A stretch of DNA of 64,000 nucleotides from Sedimenticolaceae bacterium (GTDB taxonomy: Bacteria > Pseudomonadota > Gammaproteobacteria > Chromatiales > Chromatiaceae): the NCBI GenBank assembly GCA_050304615.1, contig JBNLDW010000002.1:1630-65629 (forward strand). The letters run 5' to 3'. Shown here piece by piece: positions 10,414-14,367 of the stretch; position 1 is the first letter of the stretch; every line of letters starts with the position of its first letter. Both the position numbers and the translations under genes were made by a program. Below the pieces are notes generated by a model. That model saw only the letters and a program-made list of their open reading frames with translations, ran no database searches and was not told where the DNA came from.

Positions 10414-13400
10414 TCAGGATGTCTGCCACGCAGCAGCTATTGCTGAGCTTAGATCATCCTGCTGTTGAGTAGTCAGATCATCAATATTACCTGGCTCACC
10501 GGTGCTTATTGCGGCCATTGCCTGAACCAACTGATTGACACTGCTGGACAAGAGTACTTCATCACTAGTTTGTATAGTCTCAATTTGGTTAGACGCATAA
10601 TTATACCAATCTTGAATGGCAATCTGATCGTCGCTGCCTATGTGGTCAATGAATAAATCACCCCCAGACTGACTAAACCATAGTTCGTTAGGGTTTATGC
10701 CATTAAAAACCAGCTTATCATCTCCCAGATAATCATAAATTGAGTCTTGGCCATCACCTGCATTAAAAATGTAGGTATCGTTACCACCGCAGCCATCTTC
10801 CAATGTGTCGTTGCCGGTGCCACCGATAAAGGTGTCGTCGCCTCCATCTTGATCCTCTAATGTGTCGTCTCCAGCACCACCATTGAGCGTATCATTGCCT
10901 GCATTACCATAAAGGTAATCATCTCCCCCCAGGCCGTTCAGGGTAGAGTCCCCAGAGTCCGGAGAATAGAGGTCATCACTACCTTCGGTGCCGTTAACAG
11001 CCAATGTTAGATTATGCAGGTCTGTGGATGTCCACACGGTGCCGTCAGCAAATTCTGCGCTTTCTATCTGAGCATCGGTGTCGTTGAACCAGTTAGTAAT
11101 CGTGATCTGGTCACCGTTGCTACCGATGTAGAGGATAAGCTCATCGTAGTCACCCTGACGTCCGGTAATACTATCGGCTGTTATGCCTGAACCAAATACC
11201 AGCTTATCGGTTCCCAGATAGTCATCAATCTCATCCTGGCCGTCACCCAGATTAAAGATGTAGGTGTCGTTACCACCGCCGCCATCGGACAACATGTCGT
11301 TACCGGTGCCACCGATAAAGGTATCGTCACCGCCATCGTAATCCTCTAATGTGTCATCACCAGAGCCACCATTTAGCGTATCATTGCCAGCATTACCATA
11401 AATGTAATCATCTCCACCAAGGCCGTTCAGGGTATAGTCACCAGAGTCTGGTGAATAGAGATCGTCGTTACCTTCAGTACCCTCCACAACCAGGGTCAGG
11501 TTGTGCAGGTCTGTGGATGTCCACACGGTGCCATCAGCAAATTCTGCGCTTTCTATCTGAGCATCGGTGTCGTTGAACCAGTTAGTAATCGTTATCCGGT
11601 CTCCGTTGCTGCCGATATCGAGGATAAGCTCGCCATAGTCACCCTGACGTCCCGAGACGATATCTGTTGTGATGCCACTGCCGAATACCAGCTTGTCGGT
11701 TCCCAGATAATCATCAATCTCATCCTGGCCGTCACCCAGATTAAAGATATAGGTATCGTTACCACCGCCGCCATCGGACAACATGTCGTTACCGGCGCCA
11801 CCGATGAAGGTATCGTCACCGCCATCGTAATCCTCTAATGTGTCGTCTCCAGCGCCACCATTGAGTGTATCATTGCCTGCATTACCGTAAAGGTAATCAT
11901 CTCCCCCCAGGCCGTTCAGGGTATAGTCACCAGAGTCTGGCGAATACAGATCATCAATGCCTTCGGTGCCGTTAACAGCCAATGTTAGATTATGCAGGTC
12001 TGTGGATGTCCACACGGTGCCGTCAGCAAATTCCACGCTTTCTATCTGTCTATTTTCGGCGTATTGGTTGTACCAGCTAATAATCGTGATCTGGTCGCCA
12101 TTACTGCCAATGTCGAGGATAAGCTCGCCATTGTCGCCCTGACGCCCGGAAATACTGTCGGCTGTGATGCCAGTGCCGAACACCAGCTTATCGGCCCCCA
12201 GATAATCGTCAATAGTGTCCTGTCCATCGCCCAGATTAAAGATGTAGGTGTCGTTACCACCGCCGCCACCATCACCATCATCTAGCAATATGTCGTTACC
12301 AGTGCCACCAAAAAACACATCATCCCCTGTGCCACCGGTCAAATTATCTGCGCCTCCATCTCCTATGATTAGTGTGCTCCCATCAATAGCAAATAGGGAG
12401 TCGTTGCCTGTAGCACCATATATTGTTGCGTCTATGCCAGCTATGAGAAACTCTAATGGAGTACCATCGAGTACCCTTAGTAGTTCGCTGTCAAGCTCTC
12501 CAGCAAGAGCATTGTCATCTTCTGATACAGTTTCAAGTATTGCTTTTTGATTGACCCAGAAATGAATACCATCAGTGAAGCCTGCAGGTTGATAACTTGC
12601 AATGTTATCGATCAACTCATCAACTGGCTGAGAAAGGGAAAAAGAGTCCGTACTGAATTGATACTCTATGCCTTCATATAAATTATTTTGCTGCTGAACA
12701 AGTAAGCGAGCAGTTATGCTATGTACAAGTTTACTCCATGCATTATTTAGATATATAGCATTCGCCATCATTGGCGTATCATCACCCATGGTATTTACGA
12801 AATCAGTAGCCAGGAATGCCTCTAATGCCTCAAGCTTTCTGGCGTCAAACTCTGTACCACGGCTGTCAGGATCAATGTCTGCCGTGCCAGCCCACTCAAA
12901 TATGATCTCCTCCACACGCGAAGGAATGCTTTCTGACGAATTTGTCAGATCAATATCGGCAAGGTCTTGTATCAATGCGAGAAGGCCTGTGTTTTGACTT
13001 GTTGCGATATGCAAATCAGCCACATTGCCGTAACCTCTAGCTATAGGTGATAGTATTGCATCCAGGGTTAGCTGGTAGTCACCAACAAATTCAGAATTGA
13101 TTTGATCTCTCTGTAGAGAGGCATTCCCTATTTCTCCTGTAGTGCCATCACTGCGGGTAAAGGTTGAAACAAGAGGTATAGCATTACCGTTGATTATCTG
13201 GCCTGAGCTACTTGGGTTGAGGTTGATGCTGGAAATCCCTAAATCGGAGAGGCTGGAAAGCTCGGTGACATCTGATATGCCATCCTGATTTATGTCCTGC
13301 CATATTTTCAGCTCGGAAAATTGTTGATCAGAGGCATCGACAATGCCATCGCTATTTGAATCCAGATCGGCAAGGGCCGCAAAGCCGTCGGTTGCAACTG

Positions 13401-14367
13401 CATTACCTACGTCAATAGGGGTGTGGTCGCCAAACAGCTCTTTGCCGTTATCAATTGTGCCATTACCATTGCGGTCAAGAACCAGAAGGCCGTCATCTGC
13501 AGAGACCCAACTCGCAGTTTCTGCAAAATCATTGGCATCTAAATCAAATTTAACATTTGATCCTTCAAGTGCGGTCAACTCTAAACCGTCGCCATCTAAA
13601 TCAAGTACTAGTGGATCTATTCCACCAAGGATTGCTGCTGCGGCGTGGTCAAAAAGATCTTTAACATCATCAATGAAATCGCCAATTGCATCCTTGGTGG
13701 GTGATCCATAGATGTCGTTGATGAGGTTGTTTATTCCATCACCAACTGCGTCACCAACCTCATCAATGGATTCTAGGGCTCTGCCAAGTACATCTTGAGC
13801 TGATTGAATGGCGTCATTCACAGCATCTGCTACATTTTGAATTTGATCGTTTGTTTGGTCACCAACAGCGCTGGCCAGATTTCTGGCATTTGTAATGGCG
13901 TCTTCAGCTATTCCGTTGATATCCGCGCTTCCATCATCTTGACTTATAGACATTATCGCTAATGCGGCAGATGCTAATACACCTGCTGCAGCGAGTGCCC
14001 CGGCAACTGGAGCACTTATAAGGCCGGCTGCAGCGGCAGCTGCTACAACCGCAGGGCTAAATGCAGTGATGTCTGAGCCCAATGCCTCAATGGTTGCGTA
14101 ATCTATATGCCCTGTATTATTAAATTGAGTAATGGCAGATTCAAGATCCAATGCTAATGCTGCGGTATTTACTGTGTTTCCAACGGCAGGAGTACTGCGT
14201 CCTATCACTCCAACAAATGTCTCAAGAACACCTAAAGCTCCGACAGTGGCCTGGGCCTCATTGCCCTCCACTGCGCTATTGATTGAATCTGCCATGTCTG
14301 CTGGCGATGTATGTAACTGTAGTATGTCTATTGCTGTATCAACTGACTGCTGATTTATCCCGCTCAT
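10414..14367 (-). CDS. Large RTX-family calcium-binding T1SS substrate with a FrpC-like self-processing module
   Basis: Many GGxGxD nonapeptide repeats and repeated HCBP-related-type segments (ITI.NWF....IE..EFADGT.W). An acidic C-terminal tail. I chose the ATG at 14367 because GGAGG sits 7 nt upstream; the ORF-track start at 14391 is TTG. Confidence 0.9.
   Translation of the reverse strand: [1317 protein letters not shown]
10771..12260. repeat. Intragenic tandem repeats of 489/489/495 bp within the RTX gene
   Basis: The landmark (g/a)taggt(a/g)tcgttaccaccgc recurs at 10771, 11260, 11749 and 12244. The encoded ~163-aa units are nearly identical. Confidence 0.9.

Follow-up and report, generated by a model that had tools for sequence, protein, structure and literature searches.

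Self-processing RTX proteins and the locus compared with them

The closest described relatives of the protein considered here are the Neisseria meningitidis RTX proteins FrpC and FrpA (PDB 6SJW and 6SJX), which are exported by a type I secretion system (T1SS) and in which a self-processing module (SPM) of 177 residues, with an Asp-Pro pair at its N-terminal edge, four Ca2+ sites and a pair of Trp residues, is placed between a variable N-terminus and the RTX repeats, while a small gene (frpD in Neisseria) is located directly upstream. In characterised SPMs, Ca2+ triggers release of a fragment with a reactive C-terminal Asp that is able to cross-link, and the fold, consisting of two perpendicular beta-sheets and a helix-turn-helix, was published as novel (PMC7078468). 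In vitro, addition of Ca2+ induces cleavage of natural SPMs sharing 98%, 71% and 60% identity with FrpC, and each of the four natural SPMs assayed to date has proved active (PMC12538545). The ApxIVA protein of Actinobacillus pleuropneumoniae, which we compare by description, likewise combines RTX repeats with an SPM and is cleaved at Asp-Pro in vitro, and deletion of its SPM attenuates infection; the role of SPM-RTX proteins is nevertheless poorly understood, and those tested are not cytotoxic to host cells (PMC7078468). Here we describe a 1317-residue RTX protein encoded on the minus strand of a 64,000-nucleotide stretch (hereafter, the window) from a Sedimenticolaceae bacterium (assembly GCA_050304615.1, contig JBNLDW010000002.1, positions 1,630 to 65,629), which contains a module of this type and resembles FrpC and FrpA in each of the features of layout listed above.

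Some of the differences lie upstream of the module. Residues 1-414 of FrpC are unrelated to the 251-residue acidic N-terminal region of the window protein, which is predicted to be helical and includes a hydrophobic segment, and the place of the FrpD lipoprotein is taken by a predicted membrane protein with two transmembrane segments and an OB-like domain. The hlyB and hlyD genes are dispersed in Neisseria (PMC3034196), whereas in the window they belong to the same operon as the RTX gene. Finally, Neisseria is a pathogen, as is the source of ApxIVA, which has a different N-terminal part as well, while the window comes from a free-living or marine uncultured gammaproteobacterium.

Identification of the module

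When a 266-residue slice around the Asp-Pro site was used as a phmmer query against all PDB sequences, it matched the FrpC SPM end to end (6SJW, E = 6.8e-45, chain residues 1-178 of 179), as well as 6SJX (E = 9e-45), with the alignment beginning at the Pro. In a pairwise BLASTP alignment of 179 columns, the two modules are 48% identical (E = 2e-53), which is far from a poor alignment and bears out the sequence-only reading, in which this segment had been likened to FrpC. An AlphaFold2 model based on a 121-sequence alignment has a predicted local distance difference test score (pLDDT) of 91-98 across residues ~250-437, and a Foldseek search of the PDB with the SPM model returned significant matches only to 6SJW (E = 7e-18, TM value 0.86) and 6SJX (E = 9e-17, TM value 0.82), both TM values being normalised to the target. 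The peptide that had been quoted for positions 13086-13617 is an exact translation of the minus strand, in frame within the open reading frame (ORF) 10414..14391, and the Asp-Pro codons are indeed found at 13612-13617, aligned with D414-P415 of FrpC; the FrpC string given there as GWVAADDG was slightly wrong, the real one being GWVSADDG.

We mapped the key FrpC residues and Ca2+-site definitions given in PMC7078468 onto the alignment of 121 homologues. Every sequence has the scissile Pro (121/121), and 109 also have the Asp. All four EF-hand-like Ca2+ sites are identical to those of FrpC (D419/D421/D423/G424 together with D456; D462-E474; D499-D510; D521-E532), as is D455, and W287 and W356 correspond to the T-shaped pair W451/W519, both columns being invariant throughout the alignment. 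The positions D478, D579, L580-L582, L475, G477 and G491 were checked as residues of the transient fifth Ca2+ site and the “narrow port” of FrpC: the equivalents of L475, G477, D478 and G491 are identical in the window module and L582 is kept, while the substitutions at D579 and L580/L581 are considered below. The identical positions that were checked are invariant or nearly so across the homologues.

Pfam-A and NCBIfam scans of the full protein revealed only RTX/HCBP repeats. The Pfam copy that was scanned did not include the SPM model PF26745, and the module was therefore identified through the PDB and through precomputed annotations, in which the orthologue P0001 bears PF26745 “SPM”. Taken by itself, the negative Pfam scan would have been misleading, as orthologues are annotated with PF26745.

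Overall, we estimate a probability of about 0.8 that we are dealing with a true SPM of the FrpC type (PF26745) in a protein that is exported by a T1SS and cleaves itself at Asp-Pro. From the characterised homologues, we infer how secretion, Ca2+-triggered cleavage and anhydride chemistry would proceed in the window protein; the predicted Ca2+-triggered release of the 251-residue fragment is well supported by homology. The protein would leave the cell unfolded, in one step, through the HlyB/HlyD-type T1SS encoded just upstream, with the SPM and the RTX blocks disordered at the low Ca2+ of the cytosol. Seawater contains ~10 mM Ca2+, and outside the cell the RTX blocks would be the first to fold around this ion, followed by the SPM, the folding of which would put strain on Asp251-Pro252, with the Asp side chain attacking its own carbonyl. 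The chain would thus be cut to yield a 251-residue N-terminal fragment ending in a reactive aspartic anhydride, which would either be hydrolysed or be captured by a nearby amine to form an Asp-Lys isopeptide.

The length of this fragment depends on the choice of the start codon. The listed ORF opens at a TTG at position 14391, while the ATG at 14367, with GGAGG 7 nt upstream of it, is almost certainly the true start; given this ATG and the 1317-residue P0121, residues are numbered from the ATG, and the fragment comprises 251 residues (D251|P252) rather than the 259 counted from TTG, in good agreement with the ~250 proposed from the sequence alone.

The N-terminal cargo and its upstream neighbour

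The only stretch of the protein in which the 19-residue Kyte-Doolittle mean is at least 1.6 (peak 2.15) lies within the cargo, as the region upstream of the cleavage site is called here, and coincides with the Ala/Gly-rich hydrophobic stretch that the sequence-only reading had pointed out. At ~45 residues, this segment has the length required for a helical hairpin across the membrane and possibly forms one. Among 120 SPM homologues, related cargo was detected only in P0001 (40% identity) and, by hhalign, in P0005 (96.9%, E = 1.5e-10). By eye, and without scoring, an Ala/Gly-rich hydrophobic stretch can be seen at the matching place in P0001, P0005, P0004 and P0070, although the cargo of P0004 and P0070 has no detectable homology to that of the window. 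Comparison of the cargo with Pfam and the PDB yielded no credible match, the Pfam output consisting of sub-threshold noise, and pattern scans of GTDB genomes and JGI metagenomes did not find cargo relatives. A search with the 251-residue cargo alone also returned nothing, probably because Ala-rich words swamped the prefilter of 8000 candidates; since it missed P0001, which is clearly homologous, the empty result is no evidence of absence.

We compared the locus component by component with L003, a metagenomic locus encoding P0001 (Logan SRR28400133), and with L001 from Neptunomonas japonica DSM 18939. The operon order (hlyB, hlyD, small gene, RTX gene) is the same in all three, and the identities are given in Table 1. 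In N. japonica, the cargo is unrelated, and an unrelated 138-residue lipoprotein is encoded in place of the small membrane protein. Thus, the cargo and the small gene are common to the window and L003 and both differ in L001, while the scaffold is kept, so that the two behave as an exchangeable cassette.

The small gene of the window encodes a 183-residue protein modelled by AlphaFold2 as a helix (residues 21-48), a series of strands (59-139) and a second helix (142-180), with two hydrophobic segments and no lipobox; it is predicted to reside in the inner membrane. Its ~80-residue beta domain has weak structural matches to OB-folds. The family is confined to three members in 5.8 billion proteins, namely the window protein and two relatives, one of which occupies the same position in L003 (E = 4e-26). 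A search of the PDB sequences yielded no hit to FrpD at E <= 10 and no credible match to any other entry. A FrpD-like lipoprotein was considered for this protein and rejected: the upstream position is shared, but the lipobox and any FrpD hit are missing, and the two transmembrane segments and the OB-like domain do not fit. Elsewhere, a gene for a 195-residue protein with two transmembrane segments overlaps the start of the SPM gene of P0005, and P0070 and P0004 are also preceded by genes for small membrane proteins with a comparable architecture. Comparison of the window family with the two-segment proteins of P0005 and P0070 by hhalign was marginal (E = 0.003 and 0.19, respectively), so that we claim a shared architecture and not homology.

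Two other occurrences of such genes deserve mention. At L005:9682-10561, a homologue 51% identical to the window protein follows a short N-terminal remnant of hlyB, nearly identical to that of N. japonica HlyB; further small ORFs with multiple transmembrane segments come after it and there is no RTX gene, so that this copy looks like an orphan kept after loss of the secretion and toxin genes. Upstream of P0004, at L086:3-1124, there are two tandem paralogous small genes, the products of which both end with a transmembrane segment, in an arrangement resembling arrays of immunity paralogues.

The exchange of cargo together with its neighbour fits, and does not prove, a T1SS effector accompanied by a cognate immunity or partner protein. 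We tentatively propose, at somewhat below even odds, that the released fragment is a functional cargo, an effector inserting into membranes through its Ala/Gly-rich segment, and that the 183-residue protein is the partner that belongs to it, with immunity as its most plausible role. With a shade more reserve, the SPM-RTX scaffold in general may be viewed as a delivery and release device of T1SS polymorphic antibacterial toxins, in which the cargo is swapped along with its cognate upstream immunity gene and set free outside the cell by Asp-Pro autoproteolysis in response to Ca2+. Other SPM proteins among the matches carry N-terminal Ntox44, Peptidase_M23, Lipase_3 or phage-lysozyme domains. Such Ntox44, M23, lipase and lysozyme domains are typical of antibacterial effectors. 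In addition, a partner with two segments in the inner membrane cannot meet a T1SS-exported protein unless that protein re-enters the envelope, which favours immunity over a surface anchor of the FrpD type.

There are precedents for the individual elements of this proposal. FrpC and FrpD have themselves been put forward, as a hypothesis, as a T1SS antibacterial effector/immunity pair, and in Stenotrophomonas maltophilia, in the case of Smlt3024/Smlt3025, the idea is similar in that N-terminal regions of RTX proteins act as antibacterial effectors and an adjacent small gene provides immunity; Smlt3025 has a FrpD-like topology, while the effector is delivered by a type IV secretion system (PMC6759196). 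We found no sequence relation of Smlt3024/Smlt3025 to the window cargo or to the small protein. As far as the description in PMC5380434 goes, there are T1SS-exported bacteriocins of the glycine-zipper type that are paired with small immunity proteins in the membrane, and the CdzC/CdzD/CdzI system of Caulobacter offers an analogy in its T1SS export, its small-residue-rich hydrophobic toxin segment and the small membrane immunity protein encoded in the cluster; the Cdz proteins are described there as staying on the producer surface, whereas the window cargo would be freed from its RTX carrier by autoproteolysis.

Several observations weigh against this interpretation. The AlphaFold2 prediction for the cargo is all-helical and of low confidence (pLDDT 45-79). 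The covariation of cargo and neighbour extends to three to five loci, mostly on short metagenomic contigs, and would equally be expected for an anchoring partner of the FrpD type; the marginal hhalign values for the small proteins belong here as well. As regards the processing itself, self cross-linking would be limited with only two Lys in the cargo and 12 in the whole protein. None of the RNA-seq runs contains the locus. Finally, the window includes two genes for ankyrin-repeat proteins, at 45-713 (plus strand; Ank_2, E = 1e-56) and at 21755-22315 (plus strand; E = 1e-32). Ankyrin-repeat proteins are unusual in free-living bacteria and are a hallmark of host-associated ones, and the pair is suggestive of an association with a eukaryotic host.

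In the most serious alternative, the protein acts on a eukaryotic host in the manner of FrpC or ApxIVA, with the fragment linked to the host surface for adhesion or colonisation and the small protein serving as a FrpD-like anchor. This is the sole role with experimental support, since FrpC 1-414 binds FrpD and becomes attached to surface proteins of epithelial cells (PMC7078468), and deletion of the ApxIVA SPM attenuates virulence (PMC7078468, PMC5233953); the ankyrin-repeat genes would fit it, and so would the cargo/neighbour covariation, which is compatible with any binding partner. We nevertheless consider it unlikely for this locus: the small protein, with two predicted alpha-helical transmembrane segments, no lipobox and no sequence match to FrpD or other PDB entries, would sit in the inner membrane, whereas FrpD is a lipoprotein of the outer membrane, the DNA derives from a seawater metagenome, related SPM proteins bear domains that are typically antibacterial, and even FrpC and FrpD have been suggested to form an effector/immunity pair.

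If the effector/immunity interpretation is true, the window cargo would represent a new and very rare membrane-active family, in a position occupied elsewhere by Ntox44, M23 peptidase, lipase or lysozyme domains, and the locus would offer a manageable system, from a non-pathogen, for studying the proposal made for FrpC/FrpD. The cargo and membrane-protein gene unit and the antibacterial domains of the sister proteins make the idea testable.

Cleavage competence and variation within the family

A second alternative accepts the SPM homology and holds that the module folds on Ca2+ but cleaves negligibly or not at all, so that the protein acts intact, with Asp-Pro as a vestige. This would accord with the departures from FrpC at the positions of D579, which is Asn in the window, and of L580/L581 in the narrow port, which are replaced by Ala/Ser; the latter residues are rare at those columns (4/121 each) and may affect the rate of cleavage. 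It would also accord with the homologues lacking the scissile Asp (12/121), in which it is replaced by Ser in eight cases and otherwise by Thr, Cys, Glu or Ala, mostly nucleophiles; the N. japonica orthologue is one of them, with Ser-Pro in place of Asp-Pro (L001:8298-8303). Such SPMs may lack activity, or may rely on a different, acyl-shift chemistry for cleavage. Furthermore, many SPM-like repeats occur in giant proteins, in which cleavage at each copy seems unlikely. In FrpC, however, D579N still cleaves and is fully active, while D579A abolishes cleavage (PMC7078468), and Asn ranks second in frequency at this column (36/121), including in homologues that retain Asp-Pro. The window module keeps Asp-Pro and all of the Ca2+-binding residues, and the record of the natural SPMs assayed to date is four out of four (PMC12538545). 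Loss of cleavage is accordingly an improbable explanation, and functional cleavage by the window SPM is the default expectation from its sequence.

The family to which the module belongs is very large, with members numbering in the tens of thousands. A phmmer search with the 182-residue module against 1.84 billion cluster representatives yielded 17,697 matches with E <= 1e-10, of which 3,369 reach E <= 1e-30. Being part of a known family of this size with its own Pfam entry, the window SPM is a further member and is ordinary as a module. It adds little by itself, as the structure and mechanism are known and the module is already used as the “NeissLock” protein-ligation tool; as a marine variant with 48% identity to FrpC and Asn at D579, it may provide an extra natural variant for kinetics at the Ca2+ concentration and temperature of seawater. 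An exact 45-mer from the window SPM was absent from GTDB representative genomes, so that the source genome is not among them. Beyond the close orthologues, the strongest SPM-like matches (P0122-P0268) are giants of 3000-7700 residues with 2-4 SPM-like stretches each, often located near the C-terminus, and the family is thus broader than the layout in which an N-terminal cargo is followed by one SPM and RTX repeats.

The remaining alternative, a classical pore-forming RTX cytolysin of the HlyA/ApxI-III type with an incidental likeness to the SPM, is rejected: a hydrophobic N-terminal segment, RTX repeats, an HlyB/HlyD operon and an NCBIfam RTX_toxin match (E = 4.9e-56) speak for it, but that match scores 190 against a cut-off of 1000 and has its best stretch in the repeat region (residues 1132-1297), none of the operon ORFs scanned matches an acyltransferase family, the SPM match runs end to end (E = 7e-45) and extends to the fold, and there is a single hydrophobic segment of ~45 residues where RTX cytolysins have a hydrophobic region of several hundred.

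Organization of the RTX gene and its surroundings

The features of the locus are listed in Table 1. From N- to C-terminus, the RTX protein consists of the cargo, the SPM, a conserved middle domain, RTX/HCBP repeat blocks and a C-terminal tail. The Pfam matches HemolysinCabind (E = 2.7e-20) and HCBP_related (E = 2.7e-43) both fall on the C-terminal side of the SPM, and there are 15 motifs of the GGxGxD type. The protein as a whole is strongly acidic (239 D+E versus 29 K+R). The bulk of the RTX region is made up by a tandem array, in which each 489-nt unit comprises RTX nonapeptides and one HCBP_related domain. The tail is presumed to be the T1SS secretion signal on the basis of its position and of what is known about RTX substrates of T1SS (PMC7078468). 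The middle domain has no Pfam match except for RTX repeats at its C-terminal end, and neither a second SPM nor an RTX paralogue is present elsewhere in the window.

Table 1. Positions of the operon genes and of the parts of the RTX protein in the window, with amino acid identities to the corresponding parts of two other loci
Feature	Positions	Strand	Basis or remarks	Identity, L003	Identity, L001 (N. japonica)
HlyB-type ABC transporter, C39-like N-terminus	16445..18601	-	Pfam ABC_membrane, ABC_tran, Peptidase_C39	62%	68%
HlyD-type membrane-fusion protein	14988..16448	-	Pfam HlyD_3 (E = 4.7e-18), HlyD_D23	45%	56%
183-residue membrane protein gene	14388..14939	-	Stop codon 20 nt upstream of the RTX ATG	34%	no hit
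RTX protein gene, 1317 residues	10414..14367	-	ORF; P0121 (1317 residues) 100% identical		
Cargo fragment, residues 1-251	13615..14367	-	Acidic: 35 D+E, 5 K+R, only 2 Lys		
Cargo, residues 1-170		-		37%	no hit
Ala/Gly-rich hydrophobic segment, residues ~98-142 (~45)	13942..14076	-	Pro at 105 and 120; small-xxx-small motifs		
Linker, residues 171-251		-		52%	34%
Scissile-pair codons, Asp251-Pro252 (equivalent to FrpC D414-P415)	Asp 13615-13617, Pro 13612-13614	-	Alignment		
SPM, P252-V428, 177 residues (= FrpC 415-591)	13084..13614	-	PDB match, AlphaFold2, Foldseek	76%	68%
Post-SPM middle domain, residues ~433-660 (~230 residues)	12388..13071	-	45-50% identity to both orthologues	50%	45%
Tandem array, 489-nt (163-residue) unit, 3.2 copies	10705..12268	-	Tandem Repeats Finder: 84% matches, score 2225		
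C-terminal ~60 residues, acidic tail	10417..10596	-	Presumed uncleaved T1SS signal; placed after the last RTX block		

The RTX gene is the last in the operon hlyB, hlyD, 183-residue protein gene, RTX gene. The N-terminus of the transporter aligns with E. coli HlyB (8DCK, 3ZUA; E = 5e-21). It has Thr13 at the position of Tyr9 in HlyB, where active C39 peptidases have Cys, and the His of the DGRHFIL motif is replaced by Tyr, indicating that the C39-like domain is catalytically dead; we assign it to the type that binds substrates without proteolysis and is found in systems exporting RTX proteins.

The T1SS/RTX operon (~10000-18600) has a G+C content of 42-47%, versus 50-59% in the flanks, where housekeeping genes including ilvD and ileS are located, and horizontal acquisition would be in keeping with this low-GC island. 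The best matches of IleS, to uncultured Gammaproteobacteria/Chromatiaceae-like MAGs, reach 75% identity and place the source only approximately. The window contains no tRNA genes, and none flanks the island; promoter and terminator scans were uninformative, with fewer sites than in shuffled controls. DNA of the locus occurs in seawater metagenomes.

Two further observations concern the coding sequence. The 489-nt array gives rise to near-identical spurious ORFs on the plus strand, at 11503-11838 and 11992-12285. A second Asp-Pro pair is found at residues 499-500 (12868-12873, in DIDPDSRG), within the middle domain and outside the SPM context, and is kept in P0001 (DIDPNSRG) and in N. japonica (NIDPNSRG).

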